DNA of 64,000 nucleotides from positions 2,337,267 through 2,401,266 of the forward strand of contig OZ253478.1 in the NCBI GenBank assembly GCA_965261835.1. The letters run 5' to 3'. Below the pieces are notes generated by a model, which worked only from the letters and a program-made list of their open reading frames with translations, was not told the DNA's origin and ran no database searches. The position numbers and the translations under genes were made by a program. Below, one piece after another: positions 29,431 through 45,309 of this stretch. Within the stretch, counting starts at the first letter, position 1; the number at the start of each line of letters is the position of its first letter. The DNA comes from Dehalococcoidia bacterium. GTDB lineage: Bacteria > Chloroflexota > Dehalococcoidia > SHYD01.

Positions 29431-30603
29431 ATGGAGTTTGGCTGGTCAGCAGAAGAGCTAGCATTTCGCGATGAAGTTCGGAGCTTCCTAAAGCAGTTGC
29501 TTCCGCCTGATTGGGATCAGCATGTCCGGACCGACATGCAGGACCACGACTACTCCGTTCGCTTTGCCAAGGAGTTCGCTAAGCAGCGCTGGCGGGTGAT
29601 GCATTGGCCCAAAGAGTACGGGGGACTGGAACTCAACCTCTGGCGGCAGGTCATCTTCTCGGAAGAGCTGGCCTACCGCGGCGTCCCCGGATCATCCGAC
29701 CTCGGGAGCAGCTCCATTGGCCCCATGCTCATGAAGTTCGGTACGGAGCAGCAGAAGGACCAGTACCTGAATGCCATTGCCAACGCCGAGATCACCTTCT
29801 GCCAGCTGTTCACCGAACCCGGCTCCGGCTCCGACCTCGCCTCCTTGCAGACCCGCGCCGTTCACGATGGCGACGACTACGTCATCAACGGGCAGAAGGT
29901 CTTTACCTCCGGCGCACACCATTCCGACCACGGCTGGCTCACCGCGCGCACCGATACCGAGGCCCCCAAACACCGTGGCATCAGCACCTTTCTCATCGAT
30001 ATGAAGACGCCAGGCATCACGATCCGCCCCATGATCAACCTCACCGGCGGCCATGACCAGAACGAGGTCTTCTTCGACGACGTGCGCATCCCCGCCGACA
30101 CGCTGGTGGGCGAGGAGAACCGCGGCTGGTACCAGATCGCCTCATCGCTGGACAGCGCCCGCTCCAGCGTGCCGCGCTTTACCACCGCCAAACGGCTGCT
30201 GGACACCATCGCCAAATACCTGAAAGAGACCAACGGCCCCAATGGCTACGTGCTCGCCAAAGACCCCGTAGTGCGTTCCAAGCTTGCCGAGCTGGCGATT
30301 GAGATCGAGGTCGGCCGATTCCTTGGCTACCAATCGGTATCGTTGCAATACCAGGGCGTGCCATCGGAGAAGGAGGCGTCGGCCTCCAAGATCATGGGTA
30401 CCGAGCTCCTCCAACGCCTCACCAACGCCGCCATGAACATCCTGGGGCTCTACGGGCAGATCAAGCACGGCTCCAAACACGCCCCGCTGCTGGGTCAGAT
30501 CGAGTTCTTCTACAAGGAATCGGTGTACTACACCATCGGCTTCGGCACCTCCGAGATCAACCGCAACATCATCGCCGGCCGCGGCCTTGACCTGCCGCGC
30601 TAA
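29431..30603 (+). CDS. acyl-CoA dehydrogenase family protein
   Basis: 390 aa; N-terminal alpha domain, middle beta-barrel domain and C-terminal catalytic-base region (YTIGFGTSEINRNIIAG) typical of ACADs. Confidence 0.9.
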   Translation: MEFGWSAEELAFRDEVRSFLKQLLPPDWDQHVRTDMQDHDYSVRFAKEFAKQRWRVMHWPKEYGGLELNLWRQVIFSEELAYRGVPGSSDLGSSSIGPMLMKFGTEQQKDQYLNAIANAEITFCQLFTEPGSGSDLASLQTRAVHDGDDYVINGQKVFTSGAHHSDHGWLTARTDTEAPKHRGISTFLIDMKTPGITIRPMINLTGGHDQNEVFFDDVRIPADTLVGEENRGWYQIASSLDSARSSVPRFTTAKRLLDTIAKYLKETNGPNGYVLAKDPVVRSKLAELAIEIEVGRFLGYQSVSLQYQGVPSEKEASASKIMGTELLQRLTNAAMNILGLYGQIKHGSKHAPLLGQIEFFYKESVYYTIGFGTSEINRNIIAGRGLDLPR

Positions 30604-30655
30604 CCCACGCCTACCCACGCCAACCCGCGCGCTAGCCAAGAAGGACCGCTAAGCC

Positions 30656-31786
30656 ATGAACCTCGTCTTGAATGAAATGCACGACATGCTCCGGCGCTCC
30701 GCCCGTGACTTCTTGGAACAGGAATGTCCCAAGTCGCTCGTACGCTTCTGCGAGAACGAACCCAGCGGCTACGCACCGGAGCTCTGGGGAAAGATGGCCC
30801 GCCAGGGATGGCTGAGCATGGTGCTCCCCACCGAGTACGGCGGTACCAACTCGGCCTTTATGGACGTGTGCGTGCTCTACGAAGAGATGGGCCGCGCCAT
30901 AGTCCCCGGCCCATTCGCCGACGTGGTGCTCTCCGAATACCTATTGCTGGACCTCGCCAACGCTGAACAGCAGCGGCGCTACCTCCCCGGTCTCGGCAGC
31001 GGCAACCTCATCGCCACCATCGCCTACACCGAACCCACCGCAAGCTACGACGCCCACGCCATCCAGCTCAGCGCCAGGCAGGAGGAGGAGCGCTACGTGC
31101 TCTCCGGCGCCAAGCTCTTCGTCCCCAACGCCCACATTGCCGACGTGCTGTTGGTGGTGGCCCGCACCGGCCGGTACGTGAACCCCCAAGACGGCCTCAC
31201 CGTCTTCCTGGTGGACCGCAACGCGCCGGGAGTGGAGATTACGGTGCTGGACACCATTGGCTCCGACCGTCAGTGTGAAGTGCTCTTCAACGACGTCACG
31301 GTAGCCCAGAGCAGCGTCCTCGGCACCGTGGACAACGCCTGGCCCGCCCTCAAGCGCTACCTCGACCGCGCCAAGGTGATGACCAGCGTGTGGTCGGTCG
31401 GCGGCGCCTACTACGTGCAAGAGATCACGGTGGATTACGCCAAAAACCGGGTGCAGTTTGGCCGGCCCATCGGCAGTTTCCAGGCCGTGGCCCACAAGTG
31501 CGCCGACATCTCGATTCTCTGCGACGGCATGCGCTCCGCCGCCTACCATGCCGCCTGGCGGCTCGGTGAGGGCTTACCCGCAGACATGGAGATCGCCGTG
31601 GCGAAGGCCTGGACCGCCGAGAGCTACCGCAAGGTTGCCGCCATGGGTACCCAAATCCACGGCGGCGTGGGCTTCATGATGGAGTTCGACATCCAGCTCT
31701 ACTTCCGGCGCGCCAAAATGGCCGAACTGCTCTATGGCAACGCGGAGTACCACAAAGAGTTCGTGGCTCAGGGCATCGGGCTGTAG
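30656..31786 (+). CDS. acyl-CoA dehydrogenase family protein (second subunit/paralog)
   Basis: 376 aa; ACAD domains; tandem with the preceding ACAD, as in heteromeric alpha2beta2 ACAD pairs. Confidence 0.9.
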   Translation: MNLVLNEMHDMLRRSARDFLEQECPKSLVRFCENEPSGYAPELWGKMARQGWLSMVLPTEYGGTNSAFMDVCVLYEEMGRAIVPGPFADVVLSEYLLLDLANAEQQRRYLPGLGSGNLIATIAYTEPTASYDAHAIQLSARQEEERYVLSGAKLFVPNAHIADVLLVVARTGRYVNPQDGLTVFLVDRNAPGVEITVLDTIGSDRQCEVLFNDVTVAQSSVLGTVDNAWPALKRYLDRAKVMTSVWSVGGAYYVQEITVDYAKNRVQFGRPIGSFQAVAHKCADISILCDGMRSAAYHAAWRLGEGLPADMEIAVAKAWTAESYRKVAAMGTQIHGGVGFMMEFDIQLYFRRAKMAELLYGNAEYHKEFVAQGIGL

Positions 31787-31823
31787 TGCCGCCCCTTAAC
31801 CCCAACCGCGCCTAGCCACCGCC

Positions 31824-34800
31824 ATGACGGGCCAGCTATTCACCGACTACTTTCTCACCGCCGGCATCAAGGCCACCGAGGAGTGGCGGGAGTCAGACAC
31901 CGCGTTTGCCGCCTTCCGGGCCACCCTCGGCGCGCGCTACCGGCAGTTCAGCAGCAACCAACAACCCAACGAAGCCACTACCGAGCAGGAGCTGATCCGC
32001 CCGGTCCTGGAGGCGCTGGGATGGACTGACCACCTGCCGCAGCAGGGCACAACCGGTAACGAGGACATCCCGGACAATCTCCTGTTCATCGATGCGGCGT
32101 CCAAGGACCGCGCCGCCGGTCGAGCCAACCCGCAAGAACGCTACCAGGACGCCGCGGTGGTCGAAGAGAGCAAGCAGTTCGGTCTGAAGCTAGACGCCCT
32201 TACCAAAGCCCCCGGACAACACAGCAAGACGCCACACAGCCAGATACTCCAATACCTCTCGACTGCCGAGATCGCGTCGGAGAGCCGGATCCGCTGGGGG
32301 TTCCTGACCAACGGCGGCGTGTGGCGGCTCTACGACCAACGCGCCCGCCCGCGCGCCACCGGCTACTTCGAAGCCGACCTCGGGAAGCTGCTCGACTCTG
32401 GCGACGCAGACGCCCTGCGCGCCTTCTACCTGCTGTTCCGCCGCGACTCGTTCACCCGCACCAAGGGGGCCACCGCCACCTTCCTCGTGCAGGCGCTGGC
32501 CGAGGGCCGCCGCTACGAGGAGCAGGTGGCGCGGAACCTCTCCAGCGTGGTCTTCGATCAGGTCTTCCCCCGGCTGGTAACCGCACTCGCCAGCACGCCA
32601 GGGGTAGCGCTGCCGGAGGCGCGCGATGCCGCGCTGATCTTCCTCTACCGGCTGCTGTTCGTGCTTTACGCCGAGGACCGCGGGCTGCTCCCCGTCAACG
32701 ACGAGCGTTACGAAGACTACGGCCTGCGCAAGCCGGTACGCGATGATATCGCCCACAAGCAGACCACTGGCGCGCCCTTCTCGTCCGTGGCCACCGCCTA
32801 CTACGACCACCTGATGCAGCTGTGGCGACTCATCGACAAGGGCGACGCGTCCATCGGCCTGCCGCCCTACAACGGCGGCCTGTTCGCCGACGAGGCCGCC
32901 CCGCTGCTGGCGCGGGCCCGCCTGCCCGACGCGGTGGTCGCCCCGATCGTCTACGACCTTAGCCACGCTGAAACCGCCGACGGGCGCCGCTTCGTCAACT
33001 ACCGCGACATGTCGGTCCAGCAGCTCGGCTCGATCTACGAGCGGCTGCTGGAGCAGGAGCCGGTCCGCGCCGACGACGGCGGGATCGTCATCCGCCCCAA
33101 CAGCTACGCCCGCAAGGACAGCGGTAGCTTCTACACGCCGCAGGAGCTGGTCGACCTGATCGTCGACCGGACGCTGAAGCCGCTGGCGGAGGAGCGGCTG
33201 CGAGCATTCGAGCAGAAGGCCGCCGCGCTGAAGCACGACCACCGGCCCAAGTCCGAACGGCTGGCCGATCTGCGCAAGCTGGACCCCGCCGAGGCTGTCC
33301 TCGACCTCAAGGTGCTCGACCCCGCCATGGGCAGCGGCCACTTCCTGGTCACCGCCGTCGACTTTCTGTCCGACTACATCGCCGATCTGGTCGAGTCCGT
33401 GCCGGCGGTGCCGGACTGGCTGGATGGCGCGGGCGAGTATGAATCGCCGTTGGTGGGGCGGGTGGCCGCGATTCGGGACGACATTCGCGGCCGGGCCCGG
33501 CAGGCGGGATGGGTGATAGACGAGGAGGCCCAACTCACCGACCAAGCCATCATCCGCCGCATGGTGCTCAAGCGCTGCATCTACGGCGTGGACAAGAACC
33601 CCCTCACCGTGGAGCTGGCCAAGGTCTCGCTCTGGCTCCACAGCTTCACCGTCGGCGCGGCGCTCTCTTTCCTCGACCACCACCTCCGCTGCGGCGACTC
33701 CCTGGTCGGTTTGCGGGTGCGGGAGGCCAGGGACGAGTTGCTCCGGTTTGGCCCCATGTTTACTTCGAGCGCCGTCGCGGGGGCGGAAGCCGCCGCGGCC
33801 GGAATGCAGCGCATCGAGGAGATGTCCGACGCCGACATCTCGGAGGTAGAGCAGTCCGCCGCATTGTTCCGAGGCGTCGAGCAGACTACTGCTGACCTAC
33901 GCGGCCTGCTGGACTTCCTCACCGGCTTGCACTGGCACACCGCGGGGATGAAATCGAAGGAGCGCGCGGCCATCGAGGGGCACATCGCCGTGGCGCTGGG
34001 GGCGGACCAAGCGAACGGCTTGCAGCTACTGGCGCACGGCCCGGCGCATGGCCCAAACGAGAACGCCACCACCGCGCCCGCGGACGGCTCCTCACCCTAC
34101 GCTGCGCTGTGGCAGAACGCCACCGGCATCGCCGACCGTGAAACGTTCCTGCACTGGGAGGCGGCCTTCCCCGGCGTCTGGCAACGGTGGCAGGAAGCGC
34201 AACCCCAAGGCGGCTTCGACGCCGTCATCGGTAACCCGCCATGGGACCACATTGAACAGCCAGAGGTAGAGTGGTTCGCCACTCGTTCGCCTGACATAGC
34301 CCTGGCGCCGACCGCGGCTGCCCGCAAGACCTACATACAGCGGCTGCGCAACGCCGGGGCGCCACTGGCCGCCGAGTTCGACGCCGCCAAGGCGCAGGCC
34401 GATGACCTGGGCCAACTGGTGCGCGCGTCCGGCCATTACCCCCTGCTGAGCGGCGGCCGCATCAACCTCTACTCCCTGTTTGTCGAGCGCGCCATGGGGC
34501 TTGTCAAGCCGGACGGATTCGTCGGGCTGCTCACGCCATCGGGCATCTACGCCGACAAGACCGCCGCCGACTTCTTCAAGTCCATCTCAACCAGCGGGCG
34601 GGTAGCTGGGATATTCGATTTCGAGAATCGCCGCTCCGGAATGAGGCTACCGCACTTCTTCCCTGATGTCGACTCAAGGTTCAAGTTTTGCGCCCTGATA
34701 TTCGGCGGGGAGGAGCGACGATTTGATGAGACCGCGTGCGCCTTCTTCCTCCACGACACCGCGACCATCGAAGACCCCGACCGCTGTTTCCCGCTGGCGC

Positions 34801-35873
34801 CGGCGGACTTTGCCAGGGTGAACCCCAACACCGCCACCGCGCCGATCTTCCGCACCTGCCGCGACGCCGACATCACCCGCGGCATCTACGAGCGGCATCC
34901 GGTGCTGGTGGACCGCTCCGGGGGTGACGAGCGCCGCGCCTGGCCGGTCAAGTTTATGCAGGGGCTATTCAATATGACTTCAGACTCCCACCTGTTCCGG
35001 ACCGCGGCCCAGCTCGAAGCTGCGGGCTTCTACCCGGTCCAGGGCAACCGCTGGAAGAAGGGCGAGGAGACCTACTTGCCGCTGTACCAGGGCCGGATGA
35101 TCCGGCACTTCGACCACCGCGCCAACTCGGTCCGAGTCAACCCTGAGAACACGCACAATCCCTACCTGAGCCAGGAGGTCAGCGCAGCGCAGCACGCGGA
35201 TCCCAGCTTTCTGCCACATACTCAATACTGGGTGCCGGCCGTCGAGGTGGAGTCGGCTTTGCCCGAAAGTCGCGGGTACACGCTAGCGTTCCGTGACATT
35301 ACCAATCCTACCAACATGAGAACGATGATCGCTTCCATCGTTCCAGCGGTAGGTTTTGGGCACACAGCTCCCCTACTTATCGGAGACGACACCCTGGCTG
35401 CCACGTGTCTCGTGGCGAATCTGAATGCCCTATGTCTGGACTTCGTTACGAGACTAAAGGCCCAAGGCACCCATATGAACTGGTTCATCGTCGAGCAACT
35501 CCCCGTCATCGCGCCCGACGGCTACGACCGGCGGTTCGGGGAAAAGACGGCCCGTGAGATCGTCCGTGACCACGTGCTCCGCCTCAGCTACACCGCGCAC
35601 GACATGGCGCCGTTCGCCCGCGACCTCGGCTACGACGGCCCGCCGTTCATCTGGGACGAGGAGGCGCGCCGCCACCTGCGGGCCCGGCTCGACGCGCTGT
35701 ACTTCCACCTCTACGGGCTGAGCAAGGACGACGCGGGCTACATCCTCGGCACCTTCCCCATCGTGCAGCGGCAAGACGAGGCGGCGTTCGGGCGCTACCG
35801 CACGCGCGAGCTAGTGCTGGCATACATGAACGCCCTCGCCGCCGGCGACACCGAGACCGTGATGGCGGTGTAA
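31824..35873 (+). CDS. single-polypeptide type IIG/IIL restriction-modification enzyme (MmeI-like; nuclease + N6-adenine DNA methyltransferase + target-recognition region)
   Basis: N-terminal HsdR-N-like PD-(D/E)xK domain (IPDNLLF...VVEESKQF...QILQYL...GFLTNGGVWRLY); MmeI-like helical region (LLFVLYAEDRGLLP, PYNGGLFADE); MTase motif I KVLDPAMGSGHFLV and motif IV VIGNPPWDHIEQ; ~450-aa C-terminal region with no Walker A (GxxxxGK[ST]) motif seen. Confidence 0.75.
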   Translation: MTGQLFTDYFLTAGIKATEEWRESDTAFAAFRATLGARYRQFSSNQQPNEATTEQELIRPVLEALGWTDHLPQQGTTGNEDIPDNLLFIDAASKDRAAGRANPQERYQDAAVVEESKQFGLKLDALTKAPGQHSKTPHSQILQYLSTAEIASESRIRWGFLTNGGVWRLYDQRARPRATGYFEADLGKLLDSGDADALRAFYLLFRRDSFTRTKGATATFLVQALAEGRRYEEQVARNLSSVVFDQVFPRLVTALASTPGVALPEARDAALIFLYRLLFVLYAEDRGLLPVNDERYEDYGLRKPVRDDIAHKQTTGAPFSSVATAYYDHLMQLWRLIDKGDASIGLPPYNGGLFADEAAPLLARARLPDAVVAPIVYDLSHAETADGRRFVNYRDMSVQQLGSIYERLLEQEPVRADDGGIVIRPNSYARKDSGSFYTPQELVDLIVDRTLKPLAEERLRAFEQKAAALKHDHRPKSERLADLRKLDPAEAVLDLKVLDPAMGSGHFLVTAVDFLSDYIADLVESVPAVPDWLDGAGEYESPLVGRVAAIRDDIRGRARQAGWVIDEEAQLTDQAIIRRMVLKRCIYGVDKNPLTVELAKVSLWLHSFTVGAALSFLDHHLRCGDSLVGLRVREARDELLRFGPMFTSSAVAGAEAAAAGMQRIEEMSDADISEVEQSAALFRGVEQTTADLRGLLDFLTGLHWHTAGMKSKERAAIEGHIAVALGADQANGLQLLAHGPAHGPNENATTAPADGSSPYAALWQNATGIADRETFLHWEAAFPGVWQRWQEAQPQGGFDAVIGNPPWDHIEQPEVEWFATRSPDIALAPTAAARKTYIQRLRNAGAPLAAEFDAAKAQADDLGQLVRASGHYPLLSGGRINLYSLFVERAMGLVKPDGFVGLLTPSGIYADKTAADFFKSISTSGRVAGIFDFENRRSGMRLPHFFPDVDSRFKFCALIFGGEERRFDETACAFFLHDTATIEDPDRCFPLAPADFARVNPNTATAPIFRTCRDADITRGIYERHPVLVDRSGGDERRAWPVKFMQGLFNMTSDSHLFRTAAQLEAAGFYPVQGNRWKKGEETYLPLYQGRMIRHFDHRANSVRVNPENTHNPYLSQEVSAAQHADPSFLPHTQYWVPAVEVESALPESRGYTLAFRDITNPTNMRTMIASIVPAVGFGHTAPLLIGDDTLAATCLVANLNALCLDFVTRLKAQGTHMNWFIVEQLPVIAPDGYDRRFGEKTAREIVRDHVLRLSYTAHDMAPFARDLGYDGPPFIWDEEARRHLRARLDALYFHLYGLSKDDAGYILGTFPIVQRQDEAAFGRYRTRELVLAYMNALAAGDTETVMAV

Positions 35874-35878
35874 GTCTA

Positions 35879-36035
35879 CCCCCGTCATTGCGAGGAGCCT
35901 GCGACGTGGCAATCCGGGGTGGGGTGGCCGGCCGGTCGCGGGGAGTGTCCCCTGCCCCCGCTTCCCCAAGCGCCCCGCCCCCACCCCAGATTGCTTCGCT
36001 GCGGCTCGCAATGACGGGAAGCGGGGGGAGCCGCG
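35879..36035. repeat. ~155-bp long imperfect palindrome (MITE/REP-like element), copy A
   Basis: Terminal inverted repeats CCGTCATTGCGAGG ... CCTCGCAATGACGG; internal complementary arms CAATCCGGGGTGGGG / CCCCACCCCAGATTG; ~95% identical to copy B. Confidence 0.8.
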
Positions 36036-36289
36036 CGTGGGCGTCGAATATATCGCCGAAGGTGGAACCCGGCCAGGCAGCGTCCTTGCAGGCTTGAAGC
36101 GCGTCGCAACCTGCAGAGTGCATGGCAAGTTGCAACTGGCTGGGTTCGCCGGTAGTATCGTCCGCATCAGGCAGGAATGATAGTGCGGGCTGACCGACGA
36201 ATTATGAGTTCCGCATGGGGCTATCAGCTATGGCACCCGATGCAGTAACGGTGTTGCTGAATTTGTAATCGACCGAAAGGAGCGCTGGT

Positions 36290-36772
36290 ATGGCGGGAGG
36301 TCAACATGGGTTTACTTTCACCATCTTTGGACTCTTTGGCGCCGCAATAGTATTCGGAATCCCGTGGCTCGCTGGGAAGATTCTGCCTTTTATGGAATCC
36401 CCCAGCTTGGGCAGCCCGACAGGCTGGGTATTGTGCGGGGTCGGCGGCGTTGCCGGGGTTATTCTAGCCCAGATCGCGCTCACCGGCTGGCACAAAACGT
36501 GGCGGTCATGGGCCACATATGCCCTCCTTGTGGGTTCCATCTATGGAATTTTCGCCATCGCAGGGTGGTACATTGAGGCCAATCCAGACTCGGCCCTGCT
36601 GGAGACAATTACAGAACTGGGCCAAAATTTGTCTTTAGAGCCGGAGAATTTAGTCCTCATATTGTTTGTCGGTATTCCCATAGTGTTTATCGGTATTCCC
36701 ATATTGCTGTCCGTTATATTGTTCGCCCTTGTACTCTGGAAGGGGGACAGCAGCGGGAAATCTCGTCGGTAA
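36290..36772 (+). CDS. small polytopic membrane protein (4-5 TM), lower-GC cargo gene between the two palindromic repeats
   Basis: AAGGAG 7 nt upstream of ATG; Gly/Ile/Phe-rich TM segments; local GC clearly below flanks. Confidence 0.55.
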   Translation: MAGGQHGFTFTIFGLFGAAIVFGIPWLAGKILPFMESPSLGSPTGWVLCGVGGVAGVILAQIALTGWHKTWRSWATYALLVGSIYGIFAIAGWYIEANPDSALLETITELGQNLSLEPENLVLILFVGIPIVFIGIPILLSVILFALVLWKGDSSGKSRR

Positions 36773-36786
36773 CGCGAGGGGGTGGC

Positions 36787-36940
36787 TCTCCCCCCGTCAT
36801 TGCGAGGAGCCCGCGACGTGGCAATCCGGGGTGGGGTGGCCGGCCGGTCGCGGGGAGTGTCCCCTGCCCCCGCTTCCCCACGCGCCCCTCCCCCGCCCCA
36901 GATTGCTTCGCTGCGGCTCGCAATGACGAGAAGCGGGGAG
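36787..36940. repeat. ~155-bp long imperfect palindrome (MITE/REP-like element), copy B
   Basis: Near-identical to copy A over ~150 bp, same orientation, 908 bp downstream. Confidence 0.8.
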
Positions 36941-36996
36941 CCGAGTACCTTGGGCAGCGGCATCTGGTCCGCCGTGTCCGAGTTGAGGATATGGTG

Positions 36997-37833
36997 TTAC
37001 TGGCTATTCCCCTCGCTGCTATTCGCCACCAAATAGTTCACGAAGGCCGAGCAGGCTACAACCATATAGCGAGCTTCAGGGAGCCCCACTTGCGGCGCTT
37101 CCTTTATCCCATGGCGGACGCCATCCTCGTCACTCGTCCAGTTGTACATGTTGTTCCACGCTTGCTTGAGCTGAGGGTGGCCTTCTAGCTTCTGTAGACC
37201 CTTCGCGATATCGGCCTTCGAATCTCCTGCCGCTACCTGGACGGCTGATTCGACTGCCGATATCGACTCTTTGATAGCGTTGCGGAAATCGGGGGTGTTA
37301 CGGTCACTCAGAAGTGTAAGAGCTTGCCTGATATGCTGCGATGCAGCGTGAAATAGGTCCGACAACGAGGCAGCCGCATCAACCGCAGCTAGCTCTGCAT
37401 TATTGGTAATGGGGACTATCGCATTACCGACAAATCTGTAGGCGGACCCTTCCCTGCTTAGCATGTCGTTCGCATCGCTGACGTCCTCTTCGACTTCTCG
37501 CTTGCGCAGAAGATACTCCAAGACAGTGTAGACCTCATCCCAGTTTGCTTCTAAGTACCAGTCCCGAAGGACGTCTATCGCGGTATCAGGGAAACTCGAC
37601 GCAAAATCGGCATTTGGCAATTCGTCAGATGGCAATTCGTCAGAAAGCTTACCCACTATTTCGGTCCATACACTTTTTACTAACCCGTACCCATGAGAAA
37701 AACGCCCCATGACGAAATATCGATCTCGCAGGAAGTTCCAGATTGCATTCCTGAGCCGATCGTCCATCTCTTCAAATTGATGGAGCTGTGACCGGTCGAG
37801 CTTGTAGCCGTGACGTTCGGAGAAGGTTGCCAT
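36997..37833 (-). CDS. hypothetical protein, putative abortive-infection (Abi)/HEPN-like defence protein
   Basis: N-terminus MATFSERHGY...LRNAIWNFL recalls Abi-family N-terminal domains; C-terminal helical region FRNAIKESISAVESAV resembles degenerate HEPN-type motifs; lower GC than surroundings; ATG 37833 preferred (TTG 37851 alternative). Confidence 0.45.
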   Translation of the reverse strand: MATFSERHGYKLDRSQLHQFEEMDDRLRNAIWNFLRDRYFVMGRFSHGYGLVKSVWTEIVGKLSDELPSDELPNADFASSFPDTAIDVLRDWYLEANWDEVYTVLEYLLRKREVEEDVSDANDMLSREGSAYRFVGNAIVPITNNAELAAVDAAASLSDLFHAASQHIRQALTLLSDRNTPDFRNAIKESISAVESAVQVAAGDSKADIAKGLQKLEGHPQLKQAWNNMYNWTSDEDGVRHGIKEAPQVGLPEARYMVVACSAFVNYLVANSSEGNSQ

Positions 37834-37989
37834 GAAGCTATTATGCCACAATCTATGGCCGTTAAATCAGATGGAGAATCGTCACGCTCCATGACAACTG
37901 CCCAGTGTGCGCTCACCCAATTGGGGTACGCTACAATAACAGGCACACGAACAGCCGCACGCGGCCCGGTTAGGTGAGGGCAGGGCGCC

Positions 37990-39615
37990 ATGAATAACGC
38001 AGAACTTATCGTCAAGATGCTCGAGGCGGCAGGCGTGCGCTGGGTCTTCGGCATCCCCAGCGGCCCGGTGCTGCCCCTGATCGAAGCGCTGCGGCACAGC
38101 TCGATCCGCTACGTGCTGACCGCCAACGAAACCTCGGCCGGGTTCATGGCGCACACCGTGGGCGCCATGAGCGGTGTGCCGGGCGTCTGCGTGTCCACGT
38201 TGGGCCCCGGCGCCACCAACCTTGCCACCGGGGTCGGCGCGGCGTGGCTGGACCGGGCGCCGGTGATCGCCATCACCTGCAACGTGGAGACGGCTTGGCT
38301 CGACCGGCGGGTTCAGATGCGCATCGACCACCACGCGCTATTCGCGCCGCTGACCAAGGCGAGTCTCCCGCTGCGGCGCGACCGGGTAGCAGAGCGGTTG
38401 GGGCAGGCGCTGGCCCTGTGCCGGGCCGAACCGCCCGGTCCGGTGCACCTCGACCTGCCGGAGGACGTGGGCCTGGCGCCTGCCTCCGAGACCACTGCGC
38501 CGCCCGACGCCGCGGTGGCGCCGGCGGCGGCGCTGCCGCCCATCGGCCCGGACGTGCTGGCTGCGCTGGCCGCCGCATTGCAGCGCAGCCAACGGCCGCT
38601 GCTGGTGGGCGGGCTGGCCTTGACCAGAACCAAGAGCCGCCAGCGCTTACTGGAGTTCATCGAACGTCAACACCTGCCCTTTGCCCTCACGCTTCACGCC
38701 AAAGGGTTCCTGCCTGAGAGCCATCCCAATTACGTGGGCGTCATTGGCCGGGCGCGCCGCAGCGACGTCGCGGCCTTCGTGCGCCAGGCCGATCTCATCA
38801 TCGGCATGGGTTATGACCCCATCGAGATCAACTACGAAGAATGGGTGGGCGCGATCCCCGTCATGCACCTGAGCACTGAGATTGCCGACGTCGCCGCGCC
38901 GGTCCGTACCCTGCTGAACGCCGGGGGCGACCTGGAAGCCGCCTGGCCGGCCTTGGCAGCCTTGCCGCCGCAGCAACATGCGTGGACCGTTGGGGAATTC
39001 ACCGCGCACCGGCGCGCGCTGGAGCGCGCGTTGCGGCCGGAGCGGCCGGAGCGGCCCGTGAACCATGGCCTCGCTCCCCATGACGTGCTCGATGCGCTCC
39101 GGGCGCGGCTGCCTACGGACGCGATCCTGACCTACGACGTGGGGGCCCATACCCACCAGATCGCTACCCAATGGCGCACCGACGAACCCCACACCTGCTT
39201 CTCCACCAATGGCTGGTCGTCTATGGGGTTCGGGCTGCCGGCCACCTACGCGGCCAAGCTCGTCCACCCCAATCGCGTGGTGGTAGGCGTGGTGGGCGAT
39301 GGGTGCTTCCAGATGACGGTGGGCGAGGTCAGCGTGGCAAAACGCCTGGGTTTGGCCGCGCCGGTGGTGGTGCTGAACGACGGCTGGCTGGGCCTGCTGA
39401 AAGTGAAGCAGGAACGCAAGGGCTATGGGCTGTCCGGGGTGGACATCGGCGAGCCAGCGGTGCCGCCGTCCGACTATTTTGGCGTGCCATGCCGCGCCGT
39501 CCGCAATGCAGACGAGCTGACGGCGGCCCTGGATTGGGCGCTCACCCTCGAAGGCCCCAGCGTCATTGAGGCGTTGGTCGACGTGGCGCCCTACTCCACC
39601 ACCGTCTACGACTGA
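37990..39615 (+). CDS. thiamine-pyrophosphate-dependent enzyme, acetolactate-synthase-large-subunit-like
   Basis: N-terminal TPP-pyrimidine domain (GVRWVFGIPSGPVLPL), central domain, C-terminal TPP-binding motif GDGCFQM...N; 541 aa. Confidence 0.8.
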   Translation: MNNAELIVKMLEAAGVRWVFGIPSGPVLPLIEALRHSSIRYVLTANETSAGFMAHTVGAMSGVPGVCVSTLGPGATNLATGVGAAWLDRAPVIAITCNVETAWLDRRVQMRIDHHALFAPLTKASLPLRRDRVAERLGQALALCRAEPPGPVHLDLPEDVGLAPASETTAPPDAAVAPAAALPPIGPDVLAALAAALQRSQRPLLVGGLALTRTKSRQRLLEFIERQHLPFALTLHAKGFLPESHPNYVGVIGRARRSDVAAFVRQADLIIGMGYDPIEINYEEWVGAIPVMHLSTEIADVAAPVRTLLNAGGDLEAAWPALAALPPQQHAWTVGEFTAHRRALERALRPERPERPVNHGLAPHDVLDALRARLPTDAILTYDVGAHTHQIATQWRTDEPHTCFSTNGWSSMGFGLPATYAAKLVHPNRVVVGVVGDGCFQMTVGEVSVAKRLGLAAPVVVLNDGWLGLLKVKQERKGYGLSGVDIGEPAVPPSDYFGVPCRAVRNADELTAALDWALTLEGPSVIEALVDVAPYSTTVYD

Positions 39616-39633
39616 GGGGGAAGTGGGATCGCA

Positions 39634-39662
39634 GAAGGGGCGTCCATCCGCCCCTTCTTGTC
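39634..39662. terminator. hairpin GAAGGGGCG-TCCATC-CGCCCCTTC followed by TTGTCGCCCTTT
   Basis: 9-bp perfect stem between the TPP gene (+) and convergent small gene (-). Confidence 0.5.
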
Positions 39663-39691
39663 GCCCTTTAGTGGTCCTTTAGTGGATGGTA

Positions 39692-39883
39692 TTAGGTAGG
39701 GGTACCGGAAAGCTCGCCCGCGGTGATGTAGGCTTCCCCCAACGCCTTGCAGACCTGCACGGTGCCCTGAAAACGGATTTCGTACTCGTATTGCTGGCCG
39801 CCGCCGCTCACCTGCTTGGCAATCTCGTAGATGTCCGCTTTGCCCTTGGGGCCTTCTACGGAACTGACTAACTCCTCCGACAT
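39692..39883 (-). CDS. small hypothetical protein (63 aa), possible partner of the HicB-like gene
   Basis: Strong AGGAGG SD 9 nt upstream of ATG; 43 bp downstream of the HicB-like gene on the same strand; no HicA GSH motif. Confidence 0.45.
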   Translation of the reverse strand: MSEELVSSVEGPKGKADIYEIAKQVSGGGQQYEYEIRFQGTVQVCKALGEAYITAGELSGTPT

Positions 39884-39926
39884 TGGGAAACCTCCTGAGC
39901 TACTATCCAGCTACTATGCGCGCCCC

Positions 39927-40250
39927 TTAGCGGGCGTCGGTCAACTTTCCGTTATCCACCAGCCACTTGCTGAACTCCAACTGCTCGCGGTTGAGCGCAG
40001 GCATGGCCGACTTGAGCGGAGGCCGCGGCACCGGTACCGGCCGGCCCTGCTCCAAGAGCTGCATGATGATTTGCACCCGCAGCTGCTCCAACTGCTCGAT
40101 GATCTCCACCGCGGATATCCCCTCCACCACGCAGCCCGGCAGCTCGGGCATCGAGGCGCGGCGCATCCACTCGCCGTTGTCCGCCTCAAACGACTCAACC
40201 GACAATATATAGGGGATAGCCATGTATTCTTCTATTGTCATGCTCGCCAT
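39927..40250 (-). CDS. HicB-like (UPF0150) antitoxin-family protein
   Basis: Perfect AAGGAGG SD before ATG at 40250; sequence SVESFEADNGEWMRRASMPELPGCVVEGISAVEIIEQLEQLRVQII matches the HicB N-terminal RNase-H-like antitoxin domain. Confidence 0.65.
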   Translation of the reverse strand: MASMTIEEYMAIPYILSVESFEADNGEWMRRASMPELPGCVVEGISAVEIIEQLEQLRVQIIMQLLEQGRPVPVPRPPLKSAMPALNREQLEFSKWLVDNGKLTDAR

Positions 40251-40419
40251 GATCTTGCCTCCTTTGGGCGTCCGGGCACCGCTGGACACCGCCGCCCTAG
40301 TGCAGCAGTCCTGATGAAGCGTAGTGGTGTGATTGTAGTACTGGCGTGCCCCCCGCTGCAATGCGGCAATACGCTATAATAGCGGTCAGACGCGGCTAGA
40401 TTTCGAAGGACGTGGCGGC

Positions 40420-41469
40420 ATGATCAAACTAGACACGCTGGATACGCAGCTCCTCAACCTGATTCAGGGCGATTTTCCGCTTGATCCCCAGCCCTTTGCC
40501 CGCTTAGCGGAGCGTTTCGAGACCAGCGAAGCTGAGATCCTCGCCCGCCTGGGCCGGATGAAGGACGGCAGCGTGATCCGGCAGATCAGCGCGATATTCG
40601 ACACCAAGGCGCTGGGCTATCAGAGCTCGCTGGTGGCGATGGCGGTGGCGCCGGAGCGGCTGGAGGCGGCGGCGGCCATCGTGAATGGGCATCCGGGGGT
40701 GAGCCACAACTACAAGCGCGATCACAGCTTCAACCTATGGTTCACCATCGCCATGCCGCCCACCAGCAGCCTCCAGGCCACGGTGGACCGGCTGCACCAG
40801 CTGTCGGGCGCTACGTCCACCCGGATTCTTCCCACGCTGCACCTGTTCAAGATCGGCGTGGAGTTGGACATGACCGGCAAGGAGTCGCTCACCCGCCGCT
40901 CGGACCCGGCCTACAGCGCGGACAAGCGGGAGCGGTCGAAAGACTACGCCATCAGCAACGAGGACATCGCCTTCATCCGCGCCATTCAGAACGATATGGA
41001 GCTGGTGCCGCGCCCGTATGCCGACGCCGCGACCCGATTGGGCGTGACCGAGGAGGCGCTGCTGGAGCACGCCCGCAAGCTCATCGGCACCGGTCATCTG
41101 CGGCGGATCGCCGCGATTCTGTACCACCGCCGCGCCGGCTACGCGGCCAACGGCATGGCGGTGTGGCAGGTGCCGGAGGACAAGCTGCACGAAGTGGGCA
41201 ACCAGATGGCCTCCTTCACCGTGGTCAGCCACTGCTACCTCCGCCCGACCTACGAGGACTGGCCGTACAACATCTTCACCATGCTCCACGGCCGCAAGAT
41301 CGCCGACTGCTACGAAGTGGCGAAGGCGATCTCCGAGACCACCGGGGTTACCGAGTACGCCATGCTGTTCAGCACCAAGGAGTACAAGAAAGTGCGGCTG
41401 CGGCTGTTTACCCCGGAGTACGAGGAGTGGGAGGCCCGCTACCTGACGCCGGCTCCGGTGGCTTCCTGA
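40420..41469 (+). CDS. fused Lrp/AsnC-like siroheme decarboxylase family protein (NirDL / AhbAB-like)
   Basis: 349 aa with two tandem Lrp/AsnC-type HTH + ligand-domain repeats (LDTQLLNLIQ..., and second repeat AFIRAIQNDMELVPRPY...) as in NirD-NirL/AhbA-AhbB fusions. Confidence 0.6.
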   Translation: MIKLDTLDTQLLNLIQGDFPLDPQPFARLAERFETSEAEILARLGRMKDGSVIRQISAIFDTKALGYQSSLVAMAVAPERLEAAAAIVNGHPGVSHNYKRDHSFNLWFTIAMPPTSSLQATVDRLHQLSGATSTRILPTLHLFKIGVELDMTGKESLTRRSDPAYSADKRERSKDYAISNEDIAFIRAIQNDMELVPRPYADAATRLGVTEEALLEHARKLIGTGHLRRIAAILYHRRAGYAANGMAVWQVPEDKLHEVGNQMASFTVVSHCYLRPTYEDWPYNIFTMLHGRKIADCYEVAKAISETTGVTEYAMLFSTKEYKKVRLRLFTPEYEEWEARYLTPAPVAS

Positions 41470-41633
41470 AGCGCGGTGCCCCACTAGACCACCCAACCCC
41501 GACGGGGATCCGGGCAGGAACCGGGGCGAGGCCGCTTGACTTGTAGCCGCCCGTTCCATTTTGTACAATACAGCAGTTACAATCTAGCCTAAGTGGGACT
41601 CATTTCTCGCAGGCCGAGCAGGGAGGATCAAGT

Positions 41634-42509
41634 TTGCACCGTTTCGACTACTACACCCCCGCAACGGTAGCGGAAGCCGTCGAACTCCTTAGCACTAAGG
41701 GAGACGGCGGTAAGGTATTGGCGGGCGGCACAGACCTCATGCCGCAGATGAAGGAGCGGGGCCGTCACCCCAAGTACATCGTCAGCATCAAGAATATCGA
41801 GGAACTACGCAGCGTTAGCTACAGCGCGAGCGATGGGCTTACGGTTGGCGCCGGGATGAGGATGACCGCCCTGCAGCGCGAGGCGTCGGTCAAAAGCAAT
41901 TACGACGTCATCGTTCAGGGCGCTGAGCTCATTGGCTCACTGCAAACCCAGAACTTGGCTACCATTGGCGGGAACGTCTGCAATGCGGCGCCCTCCGCCG
42001 ATGCCGTCCCCGCGTTCGTTATCTTGGACGCCCAAGCCATGATTGCGGGGCCGAATGGCAGCCGCACGGTGCCACTCACCGAGGTGATCACCGGCCCAGG
42101 CATGACCAGCTTGGCGCCGAATGAGATGCTCACCAGCCTCAGCGTAGCGTCACCGCTACCCCGCAGCGCCGGTGCCTATCTACGTCACGTTCCTCGCAAA
42201 GAGCTGGACATCGCCGTTGCCGGCGTGGGAGTGTACATCCAGTTGGACGAAGCCAAGGAACGCGTTACCCACGCCCGAGTGTGCCTCGCGTCGGTAGCGC
42301 CGATCCCCATGCGGGCTGAACAGACGGAAGCGGCGCTGATGGGCCAAGCCGTCACGCCGGAACTCATCGAGCAGGCAGGCCAGGTTGCGGCGGGCGAGTC
42401 GCGCCCGATCTCCGACCAGCGTGGTTCCGCGGCGTTCCGGCGGCAGTTGGTGAAAGCCCTGACCGTCAAGACCCTCACGGATGCCGTAAACCGGATCAAA
42501 AGCAGCTAA
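41634..42509 (+). CDS. coxM: xanthine-dehydrogenase-family FAD-binding subunit (CoxM-like)
   Basis: 291 aa; FAD-binding domain (KVLAGGTDLMPQMK) plus CO-dehydrogenase flavoprotein C-terminal domain. Confidence 0.85.
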   Translation: MHRFDYYTPATVAEAVELLSTKGDGGKVLAGGTDLMPQMKERGRHPKYIVSIKNIEELRSVSYSASDGLTVGAGMRMTALQREASVKSNYDVIVQGAELIGSLQTQNLATIGGNVCNAAPSADAVPAFVILDAQAMIAGPNGSRTVPLTEVITGPGMTSLAPNEMLTSLSVASPLPRSAGAYLRHVPRKELDIAVAGVGVYIQLDEAKERVTHARVCLASVAPIPMRAEQTEAALMGQAVTPELIEQAGQVAAGESRPISDQRGSAAFRRQLVKALTVKTLTDAVNRIKSS

Positions 42510-42546
42510 AGCGATAGTGTAAGCAAAGTAATCATTAGGTGAGCCA

Positions 42547-43011
42547 ATGGCGAAACAGATTTTTCGACTCAACGTCAACAACTTCGACTACGAAGTCTTT
42601 GTAGAACCGAACCGGTGCCTCCACGAGGTCATCCGAGAGGAGATCGGGCTAACCGGTACCAAAGAGGGCTGCGGCACCGGCGATTGCGGCGCATGCACGC
42701 TGTGGCTGGACGGAGAACCAGTGACCTCCTGCCTAGTGCTCGCGGGTGAGGGTGAAGACGTCCCGATCACGACCATCGAGGGGCTGGCCCAAGGCGATAC
42801 GCTCCACCCGGTTCAAGCGGCCTTTGTGGAGTACGGCGGGTTGCAGTGCGGCTTCTGCATCCCTGGCATGCTGATGTCGGCAGCCGCAGTGCTCAAGGAG
42901 CACCCCCACGCCACGTCAGACGAGATCCGACGCGGCATCGCCGGCAACCTCTGCCGATGCACCGGTTACACCAAGATCGTTGAAGCCATCGCAGCCGTAG
43001 CCAAGAACTAA
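42547..43011 (+). CDS. coxS: (2Fe-2S)-binding small subunit (CoxS-like)
   Basis: 154 aa; plant-type ferredoxin motif CGTGDCGAC and second cluster motif CGFCIPG...CRCTGY. Confidence 0.9.
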   Translation: MAKQIFRLNVNNFDYEVFVEPNRCLHEVIREEIGLTGTKEGCGTGDCGACTLWLDGEPVTSCLVLAGEGEDVPITTIEGLAQGDTLHPVQAAFVEYGGLQCGFCIPGMLMSAAAVLKEHPHATSDEIRRGIAGNLCRCTGYTKIVEAIAAVAKN

Positions 43012-43020
43012 GGAGGTCGC

Positions 43021-45309
43021 ATGACTACCACCTATCGAGCCGTCCATCAGCGTCTACCACGGTTAGAAGGCCCCGCCAAAGTCAGTGGCGGGACGGTCTA
43101 CACCGCGGACGTACAGATTCCCAACATGGCGCACGCCAAGGTATTGCATGCGCCCTACACCCACGCCATGATCACGAAGCTGGACACCTCCAAGGCCGCG
43201 AGCTATCCGGGCGTGGTGGGCGTGTTCACCGCCGCGGACCTGCCGCCGCACCTGGCACGCGACAGCGCCAACCGTCTGAACACCATTCTGGCGGACAAAG
43301 AGGTGATGTACTACGGACAGCCCATAGCCGCGGTGGTGGCGCTGGAGCCGCACATTGCCGAGGAAGCGCTCGACCTCATTACCGTGGAGTACGAAGAGCT
43401 CCCGGTAGTGATGGACATCCTGGATGCGTTGAAGCCCGACTCGCTGCCCGTGCGCCACTCCATGGAGGGCATCGACCGCTCCGAGCTGAAGGCGCACACC
43501 ACGGTCACCGAGGAGGCAGAGGAGGAAGAGCAGGCCTCGCCCAATATCACTCACCGCCTGGTATGGAGCCGCGGCGATGTTGAGCAGGCGTTCAAAGACT
43601 CCGACGTCGTCATCGAGCGAGAGTACCGGGCGTCTTGGGTGCACCAAGGCTACATCGAGACCATGGGCGCCGTTGTCGATTGCGACATGAACGGCAACTA
43701 CAAGGTCTGGACGAGCACCCAAGGCGACTTCCCTACCCGTGAAGGCCTTGCCAAGCTTCTGGGCGTTCCGGAGACCAAGATCGTAGTGGACTTCGTGGAG
43801 ATGGGCGGCGGCTTCGGCGCCAAGATCCAGCCCTATGCGGCCGCCGTGCCGGCAGTGCTGGCCCGTATCCTGCGCCGTCCGATTAAGTTCATCATGAGCC
43901 GGAGTGAAGACCTGCGCTCGGCAGACCCTGCGCCCGGCGCTTACTTCTGGCTCAAGACCGCCGCCATGAAGGACGGCACCCTCACCGCATTGAAGGCCAC
44001 GGCCGCTTACGACTCCGGTTCATTCCCTGGCAGCCCGCTGTTGGCCGGCGCCAACCTGCTGGGCAGCTACTACAAGTGCCCCAACCTGGAGATCGAAGGG
44101 CTGGAGGTCATCACCAACAAAGTGAGCCAGGGCGCACTGCGAGCGCCGGGCACCCCCCAGGCCACCTTCGCCATCGACTCTAACATGGAGCTCATGGCCA
44201 AGGCGTTGGGGATGGATTCTCTGGAGCTCCGCCGGAAGAACGTGGTCACTGAAGGTGACCCTATGGCCAACGGCCGGCCTTTCGGCAGGGTTGGCGGCGT
44301 GGAAGTACTAGACGCCCTGAAAGAGACCGAATTCTGGAAGAACCGCAACGACCGCCCGGAGCTGCCCGGCAAGAAGGTCGGTGTGGGCATTGGCCTCGGT
44401 GGCTGGCTGGGCGGCGCCGCACCGTCCAGCGCATCCGTCCTGCTTAACCAGGATGGCACCGCGAGCGTTCTGGTGGGCGCCAATGACATCAGCGGCACCA
44501 ACACCTCCTTCGGGCAAATCACGGCGGAGGTCCTGGGCCTCTCACCGGATAAAGTGAGCGTCCGCACCGGCAGCACGGATGCTGCCCCCTACGCCGGCTT
44601 CAGTGCGGGCAGCAAGACCCTGCGCACCGTAGGTCTCTCGGTGGAGATGGCGGCCACGGACGCCCGAGACCAGATGTTCAAGCTGGTAGCGCAGCGCTTG
44701 GAGTGCAACGCCGACGATCTAGAGGCTGCGGACGGCCAGATCCGGGTGAAGGGATCGCCCGACAAAGCTATCAGTCTTGAGGTACTGGGCACCATGACCA
44801 CCAGCTACGGCTCACCGGCGCCGGTGGTACTGGGCCGCGGCCATTCGGGTTCCCCCCCGATGGCGCCCGGCTTCTCGCTGCAGGGCGTGAAAGTGGCCGT
44901 AGATCCCGAGACCGGCCAAGTAGATATTCTGGACGCCGTGTGCGTGCAGGATGTGGGCTTTGCCATCAACCCCCTGTCCGTGGAGAGCCAGCTCCAGGGC
45001 GGTATGGTTCAGTCGCTCTCCATCGGCTTCTCCGAAGAGATGGTGTGGGACGACAAGGGCGTGCTCCGCAACCCCAGCTTGCTGGACTACCGGCTGCCCA
45101 CCGCGCTGGATATCCCTGACATCGAGGTCAAGCTGGTGGAGGTACCGGTGCCGGGTGCTGGCCCCTTTGGCGCCAAAGGCATCGGCGAGCCACCCATCGC
45201 TCCCGGCTGCGCGGCATTGGTTAACGCCATTGAAGACGCAGTGGGCAGCCGGGTATACACGATGCCCGCCACCGCCGAGCGCATCCTTACCGCAATGGGC
45301 AAGATCTAA
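43021..45309 (+). CDS. coxL: molybdopterin-binding large subunit of a xanthine-dehydrogenase / aerobic CO-dehydrogenase family enzyme (CoxL-like)
   Basis: 762 aa; aldehyde oxidase/xanthine dehydrogenase a/b hammerhead and Moco-binding domains; M-S-L gene order. Confidence 0.85.
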   Translation: MTTTYRAVHQRLPRLEGPAKVSGGTVYTADVQIPNMAHAKVLHAPYTHAMITKLDTSKAASYPGVVGVFTAADLPPHLARDSANRLNTILADKEVMYYGQPIAAVVALEPHIAEEALDLITVEYEELPVVMDILDALKPDSLPVRHSMEGIDRSELKAHTTVTEEAEEEEQASPNITHRLVWSRGDVEQAFKDSDVVIEREYRASWVHQGYIETMGAVVDCDMNGNYKVWTSTQGDFPTREGLAKLLGVPETKIVVDFVEMGGGFGAKIQPYAAAVPAVLARILRRPIKFIMSRSEDLRSADPAPGAYFWLKTAAMKDGTLTALKATAAYDSGSFPGSPLLAGANLLGSYYKCPNLEIEGLEVITNKVSQGALRAPGTPQATFAIDSNMELMAKALGMDSLELRRKNVVTEGDPMANGRPFGRVGGVEVLDALKETEFWKNRNDRPELPGKKVGVGIGLGGWLGGAAPSSASVLLNQDGTASVLVGANDISGTNTSFGQITAEVLGLSPDKVSVRTGSTDAAPYAGFSAGSKTLRTVGLSVEMAATDARDQMFKLVAQRLECNADDLEAADGQIRVKGSPDKAISLEVLGTMTTSYGSPAPVVLGRGHSGSPPMAPGFSLQGVKVAVDPETGQVDILDAVCVQDVGFAINPLSVESQLQGGMVQSLSIGFSEEMVWDDKGVLRNPSLLDYRLPTALDIPDIEVKLVEVPVPGAGPFGAKGIGEPPIAPGCAALVNAIEDAVGSRVYTMPATAERILTAMGKI

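Follow-up and report, generated by a model that had tools for sequence, protein, structure and literature searches.

A stand-alone nuclease–methyltransferase fusion gene in a Dehalococcoidia genome, predicted to encode a type IIG-like restriction-modification enzyme

We analyzed a 64,000-nucleotide stretch of DNA (hereafter the window) from a Dehalococcoidia bacterium (GenBank assembly GCA_965261835.1, contig OZ253478.1, positions 2,337,267 to 2,401,266 of the forward strand), centering on a gene whose product joins a predicted nuclease domain to a DNA methyltransferase. The gene is a single open reading frame (ORF) of 1349 amino acids (aa) that runs from an ATG to a stop codon at 35871–35873. 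Its position, and the motif strings quoted for it in a preliminary description made from the letters of the DNA, were all recovered exactly: PDNLLF (residues 83–88), VVEESK (112–117), QILQYL (140–145), GFLTNGGVWRLY (159–170), LLFVLYAEDRGLLP (277–290), PYNGGLFADE (348–357), DPAMGSGHFLV (499–509) and NPPW (804–807). This is a true gene and not a chance ORF, as judged by its GC content at third codon positions (GC3), its Pfam matches and its homologues. GC3 is 0.86, as in the adjoining genes; the whole protein matches Pfam Eco57I (1.1e-19; 71.6 bits against a cut-off of 25.3) and N6_Mtase (2.6e-8); and more than 5500 database proteins are homologous, the top 120 being nearly all full length, at about 1340 aa and 70–93% identity. 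GC3 lies between 0.75 and 0.89 across positions 29431–45309, clearly above the remaining window (mostly 0.65–0.77), and the enzyme gene is therefore not compositionally distinct from the metabolic genes that adjoin it. A promoter and terminator scan returned nothing that exceeded chance.

The N-terminal domain resembles PD-(D/E)xK nucleases, and its motif residues (Table 1) are strongly conserved. Among 173 full-length close homologues, D84 and Y144 are each kept in 172 and E115, K117 and Q140 in all 173; 76 full-length relatives at 34–50% identity keep D84 in 69 cases, E115 in 57 (with Asp in five more), K117 in 59, Q140 in 62 and Y144 in 66. The near-invariance of these five residues in close homologues and in most diverse relatives argues for selection on catalysis. 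Loss of the catalytic D, E and K residues, named beforehand as fatal to the nuclease prediction, is not what the alignment of close homologues shows, where D84, E115 and K117 are present in 172–173 of 173. The domain had been read as HsdR-N-type, which is reasonable: QxxxY follows ExK, and Pfam HSDR_N matches weakly both the window protein (E = 0.0088; 16.3 bits, where the cut-off is 25.1) and, at E ≤ 0.01, 14 of the 34 diverse relatives scanned (best 4e-5). The order PD...ExK...QxxxY is common to this protein and to the N-terminal nuclease of type I HsdR. In contrast to HsdR, the window protein lacks a helicase/translocase domain, has longer loops between the motifs and scores below the HSDR_N threshold. 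As a separate observation, the PD and ExK residues are wanting in about 13 of the 76 diverse full-length relatives, which retain a WG-hh-TNG-x-x-RL motif and the other parts of the architecture. This nuclease-less branch is reminiscent of the YeeA-type MmeI homologues, which pair with helicases.

The nuclease domain is followed by a spacer whose helices are modeled confidently by AlphaFold (predicted local distance difference test [pLDDT] score 70–94) and which is collinear with the N-terminal parts of the PADLOC DrmMI and type IIG models. Beyond it lies a gamma-class N6-adenine DNA methyltransferase, with motifs spanning residues 433–949; across the family, its motifs X, I and IV (NPPW) vary little or not at all, and the family profile aligns with the methyltransferase cores of CamA, PglX/BrxX and M.TaqI. 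The presence of N6-adenine methyltransferase motifs I and IV on the same chain as the nuclease, as first described, is confirmed by their conservation and by the above-threshold Eco57I match. The helical insertion that precedes motif IV holds one of the most variable stretches of the protein (residues 717–760), with gaps and indels there in diverse relatives.

Residues ~966–1084 form a conserved linking region. The two most variable 15-aa segments of the protein (1139–1153 and 1183–1197, the latter with indels) both lie inside residues ~1085–1231, and we therefore took this part as the one that recognizes DNA. The preliminary description had assigned ~450 C-terminal residues to a target-recognition domain (TRD). 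The idea of C-terminal recognition is reasonable, but the length was too generous: the methyltransferase, with its motif VIII, still takes up about 30 of these residues, and the tail is conserved.

The immediate neighbors of the gene are two acyl-CoA dehydrogenase genes upstream and, downstream, genes for a thiamine pyrophosphate (TPP) enzyme, an AsnC/NirDL-type regulator and a xanthine-dehydrogenase-type trio. Ten more large ORFs sampled over the window encode housekeeping enzymes, transporters and one InhA-like protease. No helicase, PglZ, PLD, DUF1998, M or S gene was found within the 64-kb window. All other ORFs of the window measure at most 763 aa, leaving no room for genes of DrmA, DrmD, PglZ or BrxC size. 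With metabolic neighbors and no larger ORF, the lack of partner genes in the window that had been reported earlier holds.

The same pattern was seen across 84 homologous loci (numbered L001 onward), 80 of them fetched from reference genomes and three from metagenome assemblies, for which the ORFs of the 10-kb flanks were clustered. No conserved partner emerged from these 84 loci, since even the most frequent companion gene families occur in at most about a third of them; the commonest flanking family, a short-chain dehydrogenase, varies in distance and orientation. Recurring defense neighbors are SoFic (15 loci), an AbiLi/PDC-M38A ATPase (11) and PDC-S01 (11), and single loci carry Avs4, Dsr2 or HEAT-ARM proteins nearby. 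The enzyme gene stands alone and tends to live in defense islands. The gene is frameshifted in L065, L079, L038 and L051 and interrupted by ~1.2 kb after residue 616 in L082, a decay often seen among toxic restriction genes. Three pairs of loci represent two full-length copies in one genome: L016/L025 (96.5% identical), L044/L057 (88.2%) and L013/L042.

When residues 1–1200 were searched against a library of representatives at 50% identity, 16,200 proteins matched at E ≤ 0.001. At E ≤ 1e-30 there were 3551 clusters, including dozens of collinear proteins of 1300–1400 aa. The rarity implied by the preliminary description is contradicted by the 3551 clusters. Judged by sequence, the enzyme belongs to a known and abundant kind, and to a large, widely transferred clade. 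Cultured strains of Sinorhizobium, Pannonibacter, Celeribacter, Pukyongiella and Novosphingobium carry full-length homologues at 44–49% identity on plasmids, one of them conjugative. The annotations given are “restriction endonuclease,” [quoted passage not shown] and “hypothetical protein.” Examples are the homologues of Celeribacter indicus P73 (pP73C; WP_043872322.1), Pannonibacter phragmitetus BB (WP_119396906.1) and Sinorhizobium meliloti (NZ_CP088115.1). Phage genomes hardly ever contain the gene.

In the PADLOC ranking of the whole protein, DrmMI came first (PDLC02643, model length 1347; 5.7e-86), followed by REase_MTase_IIG (PDLC03613; 1.4e-66), the latter aligning residues 4–410 with model positions 14–405. 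The first 420 residues alone matched DrmMI (3.7e-28) and the type IIG model (1.6e-23), collinear with the N-terminal parts of both, whereas for the last 415 residues alone the matches were confined to the C-terminal ends of type IIG models (8.6e-8 to 4.4e-5). Like the Eco57I-like type IIG enzymes, the protein begins with a predicted PD-ExK nuclease, continues with a gamma-class N6-adenine methyltransferase and has its putative recognition part toward the C-terminus of the same chain; it is encoded at a locus without separate M, S or helicase genes and belongs to a family found on plasmids and in defense islands. It differs from them by a longer helical spacer and by the ~150-aa insertion in its methyltransferase, and at ~1350 aa it is, to our knowledge, considerably longer than the characterized type IIG enzymes. 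A type ISP (LlaGI/LlaBIII-like) arrangement, with a helicase between nuclease and methyltransferase, was also considered; Pfam, NCBIfam and PADLOC gave no helicase match, and the segment in question is the ~220-aa helical spacer. No solved structure or characterized enzyme was found for the ~1350-aa clade. The enzyme appears best described as a member of a separate clade among the Eco57I-domain methyltransferase fusions, distantly related to MmeI, DrmMI and PglX.

We consider it probable that the product is a type IIG-like restriction-modification enzyme that needs no partner, one chain providing nuclease, methyltransferase and DNA recognition; enzymes of this sort are a common form of defense of bacteria against phages. 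The direct observations behind this reading are the order of the domains, the completeness and conservation of the motifs, the absence of partners, and residence in defense islands and on plasmids. What is known of type IIG enzymes is the source from which cleavage, its distance from the site, the specificity and the methylated strand or strands are inferred. By that analogy, the C-terminal module (residues ~1085–1231) would read a short, probably asymmetric DNA site; the methyltransferase, using S-adenosylmethionine, would place an N6-methyl group on an adenine of that site in host DNA; and the N-terminal PD-ExK nuclease, carried on the ~220-aa helical arm, would cut unmethylated incoming DNA away from the site.

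Several results weigh against this interpretation. In an AlphaFold2 model of residues 1–430, built from an alignment of 55 sequences, the nuclease core (72–154) has pLDDT below 50, and a Foldseek comparison of this N-terminal model with the PDB gave no match better than E = 0.56. Although of low confidence, the modeled secondary structure would fit a PD-(D/E)xK core: a strand begins at D84, the next strand bears ExK, and QxxxY falls in the helix after it. The model of residues 420–1349 was unusable (mean pLDDT 42), the alignment being too shallow (~73% identity). When the PDB chains were searched with the full-length sequence and with close-family, N-terminal-only, C-terminal-only and diverse-family profiles, the matches were to methyltransferase cores only (CamA, PglX/BrxX, type I M subunits and M.TaqI), and the profile searches thus retrieved no nuclease or TRD relative. 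The recognition module is far less variable than the TRDs of many restriction-modification families. Finally, the top-ranking model, DrmMI, describes a protein that works with helicase partners, and in certain plasmids the homologue is closely followed by a gene for either an ATP-binding protein or a PLD-family protein, so that some members of the family may use accessory proteins.

Another possibility is that the protein functions as a solitary methyltransferase, in epigenetic regulation or anti-restriction, its N-terminal domain being non-cutting or serving only in DNA binding or regulation. The curated models that score above threshold match the methyltransferase part only, and a minority branch of the wider family lacks PD and ExK. 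We regard this explanation as unlikely, because retention of all five nuclease residues in 172–173 of 173 homologues from several phyla is hard to explain unless catalysis is selected; the gene also resides in defense islands and on plasmids, and disrupted copies of it exist.

The preliminary description had called the enzyme MmeI-like, or type IIL. A true member of that family would cut ~20/18 nucleotides from its site and methylate one strand of the host DNA. The likeness to MmeI, DraRI and NmeAIII (PMC2731913, PMC4833311) is one of organization: a nuclease comes first, then a helical arm, the gamma-class methyltransferase, a recognition domain and a helical tail, and there is no companion methyltransferase gene. 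Pfam MmeI models match weakly in the protein, all below the 27-bit threshold (MmeI_N 13.5 bits, E = 0.09; MmeI_hel 20.0, 0.0012; MmeI_Mtase 18.1, 0.0016), and at E ≤ 0.01 MmeI_Mtase matches 31, MmeI_hel 18 and MmeI_N 8 of the 34 diverse relatives. In addition, EQLPVIAP and the conserved helices after it resemble the “FPFP” motif and C-terminal helices of MmeI (PMC2731913). However, the MmeI TRD and C-terminal models gave no match, and the PDB searches returned no MmeI-family chain even at E ≤ 10. MmeI has its catalytic residues at D70, E80 and K82, that is, D-X9-ExK (PMC2731913); the window protein has D84-X30-E115-x-K117, a spacing of 30 instead of 9, with an extra helical loop and a QxxxY motif, and is ~430 aa longer. 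Morgan et al. (2009) assign membership at E < 1e-20 with similarity over the whole length (PMC2731913), a level that the present matches do not reach. The MmeI-like assignment is therefore not supported beyond a distant resemblance, and true membership of the family seems to us quite unlikely. A link to the MmeI-family enzyme DraRI through a match on Deinococcus radiodurans plasmid MP1 was also rejected: DraRI is disrupted by a single stop codon at position 841, and the MP1 homologue is interrupted by an insertion sequence (IS) and lies after two helicase genes.

The enzyme might instead normally act with a variable downstream accessory gene, an ATPase or PLD nuclease, the window copy then being incomplete or differently partnered. 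On Celeribacter plasmid pP73C (L085), a gene for a 667-aa ATP-binding protein overlaps the end of the homologue by 4 nucleotides, and on Pannonibacter plasmid p.BB_2 (L086) a PLD-family gene lies 7 nucleotides downstream; among the 84 loci, an AAA_21/AbiLi-like ATPase gene lies downstream in 11, and SoFic adjoins the enzyme in 15. Yet each candidate is found in at most 18% of loci, with varying orientation and distance, the downstream slot of the window and its close relatives holds unrelated genes, and the candidates are known stand-alone defense genes, all of which makes this reading very unlikely. The pP73C plasmid also carries a Fic gene just upstream of its homologue, echoing the SoFic neighbor of the 15 loci from metagenome-assembled genomes (MAGs).

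Membership in a multi-gene DISARM or BREX-type system, with partners elsewhere or lost, is the least satisfactory account. In class 1 DISARM, drmMI stands beside drmD (SNF2), drmA (helicase), drmB (DUF1998) and usually drmC (PLD) (bioRxiv 10.1101/2021.12.28.474362). The window protein is collinear with DrmMI, its best PADLOC match, over residues 29–418 and 419–807 and is of nearly equal length, but its C-terminal 415 residues are unmatched by the DrmMI model, and it retains the full set of nuclease motifs. None of drmA, drmB, drmC and drmD occurs in the 64-kb window or recurs in the 84 loci, and with these partners absent the locus is not DISARM. A 34.5% homologue on D. radiodurans R1 plasmid MP1 (L084, NC_000958.1 165118-170147) is split by ISDra3 and lies directly after two genes, for a DEAD/DEAH helicase and a “helicase-related protein,” McrBC being close by; the match begins at residue 136, so this helicase-linked branch, which resembles DISARM, differs from the window protein with its intact nuclease motif. 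The likeness to PglX/BrxX (PDB 8c45, 8q56, 9ewz) consists of the gamma-class core, in which the region of motif I is alike and NPPW is preceded by a helical insertion. NCBIfam PglX models score only 16–35 bits against cut-offs of 400–900, too far below them for a BREX component, and the window contains no pglZ, brxC or brxL; nor does a pglZ or brxC-like gene recur at the 84 loci. We know of no report of a PglX with a PD-ExK nuclease domain. The earlier exclusion of BREX and DISARM is thus upheld, and a role as a subunit of either is most improbable.

Downstream of the gene lies a low-GC (0.56) slot, whose content differs in the closest relatives, L001 and L002. It contains a candidate single-gene defense ORF resembling AbiJ, 1.1 kb from the enzyme on the opposite strand. 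The 160-aa membrane ORF nearer the enzyme gave no match in PADLOC, and we rejected it as a partner gene, as it is confined to the window and these two relatives. Of the “small defense-like island” proposed earlier, the AbiJ_NTD4/PDC-S32 ORF is therefore borne out and the unmatched membrane ORF is not. The latter lies between two copies, the window's only ones, of a hairpin element resembling a miniature inverted-repeat transposable element (MITE) or repetitive extragenic palindrome (REP). The copies are 96% identical, and each forms a long imperfect palindrome with ends CGTCATTGCGAG and CTCGCAATGACG (RNA fold −98.8 kcal/mol, z = −5). The element, MITE/REP-type in look, possibly serves as a terminator. 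It was also considered as an attachment site or cassette boundary, an idea set aside given its self-complementary hairpin, its two copies in the window and the absence of any integrase seen.

Two families without Pfam or PADLOC matches were noticed upstream of the enzyme at other loci. A conserved ORF of ~1375 aa lies a median of 369 nucleotides upstream and adjoins PDC-S01, a DUF4143 ATPase; it could be an undescribed defense gene. A 445-aa ORF ends a median of 16 nucleotides before the enzyme's start codon and reflects either lineage synteny or a local operon partner.

The close family, full length and at 63–78% mutual identity, is found in MAGs labeled Dehalococcoidia, Caldilineaceae, Latescibacterota, Rhodothermales, Gemmatimonadota, Nitrospirales, Binatia and Fidelibacterota. 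Identities between phyla (means 0.66–0.80, maxima 0.69–0.91) overlap those within phyla (0.63–0.97), which points to horizontal transfer; the 91% pair from Latescibacterota and Gemmatimonadota could be a binning error. MAGs with Plut and RHO2 in their names presumably come from coral or sponge hosts. The MAG series SB06xx and PNGco are sponge-derived (PMC7883664).

At 13–14 of the 84 loci, the intact gene is followed by one to four extra same-strand copies of its last 60–510 nucleotides only. Most of these displaced 3′ ends stop within ~10 nucleotides of the stop codon position, a few fall up to ~30 nucleotides short and two extend beyond it; they are 78–97% identical to the resident 3′ end and derive from the region of the conserved C-terminal tail. 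Differing small genes separate them; L040, for example, has an MNT/HEPN pair, followed by two ORFs without assignment and then the MNT gene once more. The window locus has no such remnant. The arrays may have arisen by repeated insertion of incoming DNA, consisting of the gene plus a cassette, with the conserved gene as the homology anchor. The sharing across phyla at 70–78% identity and these arrays are the only unusual points of the enzyme.

Table 1. Coordinates of the features described. Positions are those of the window unless a locus number is given; ORFs and elements on neither strand in particular are marked with a point.
Feature	Position	Strand	Basis or remark
Complete fused nuclease–methyltransferase gene	31824..35873	+	ORF list; Pfam Eco57I and N6_Mtase; PADLOC REase_MTase_IIG 1.4e-66, DrmMI 5.7e-86
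PD-(D/E)xK nuclease domain, ~aa 45–200	31956..32423	+	Residue conservation; weak Pfam HSDR_N and MmeI_N matches
Nuclease motif residues	D84, 32073-32075; E115-S-K117, 32166-32174; Q140xxxY144, 32241-32255	+	
Helical spacer, ~aa 201–420, with conserved LLFVLYAEDRGLLP and PPYNGGLF motifs	32424..33083	+	AlphaFold helices; sub-threshold MmeI_hel
Gamma-class N6-adenine DNA methyltransferase, ~aa 421–965	33084..34718	+	Pfam Eco57I, N6_Mtase; profile alignment
Methyltransferase motifs	X (SGSFYTP), 33120-33140; I (VLDPAMGSGHFLV), 33312-33350; IV (NPPW), 34233-34244	+	
Mostly helical insertion of ~150 aa between motifs I–III and motif IV, aa 630–780	33711..34163	+	Conservation profile
Putative target-recognition part, ~aa 1085–1231, from PLYQGRMIRHFDHR to EQLPVIAP	35076..35516	+	Variability; boundaries inferred
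Conserved C-terminal tail, probably helical, aa 1232–1349	35517..35870	+	Identity 0.74–0.90 in close homologues; low-confidence model helices
Hairpin element (MITE/REP-like), 152 nucleotides, copy 1	35875..36026	.	Starts 2 nucleotides past the enzyme stop codon
Predicted membrane ORF, 160 aa, between hairpin copies	36290..36772	+	Only in the window and close relatives L001, L002
Hairpin element, 152 nucleotides, copy 2	36787..36938	.	Direct repeat of copy 1
AbiJ-like single-gene defense candidate, 284 aa	36997..37851	-	Pfam AbiJ_NTD4 3.1e-28; PADLOC PDC-S32 1e-82
Upstream ORF, ~1375 aa	L048:5870-9991	+	Also L013, L019, L022, L030, L033, L045, L074
Upstream ORF, 445 aa	L068:8648-9982	+	Ten other loci: nine labeled Latescibacterota, one Gemmatimonadota (L046)
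Loci with displaced 3′ ends	L040:14900-17430; L017, L022, L033, L035, L036, L044, L051, L052, L059, L061, L038, L002		
Relatives without PD and ExK	P0243, P0263, P0264, P0266, P0270, P0272, P0273, P0276, P0277, P0281, P0282, P0222, P0232		

Taken by itself, the enzyme adds another predicted type IIG restriction-modification protein to those already known, and its practical value would depend on whether its specificity or cut distance turned out to be useful. Homologues in cultured Sinorhizobium, Pannonibacter and Celeribacter make the clade experimentally accessible. We also entertain, as a doubtful speculation, two broader roles: that the enzyme provides a methylation code shared across a community, or that its conserved 3′ end serves as a recombination anchor that captures downstream defense cassettes. 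Under a shared code, co-resident symbionts would exchange DNA while DNA from outside would be excluded; under the anchor, new defense cassettes would be gained, leaving stacks of displaced 3′ ends behind. Either would make the enzyme an organizer of defense islands in a host-associated microbiome. The spread across phyla, together with the displaced 3′ ends, offers a concrete, testable case of a defense gene that moves through a microbial community and may seed defense islands as it does so.

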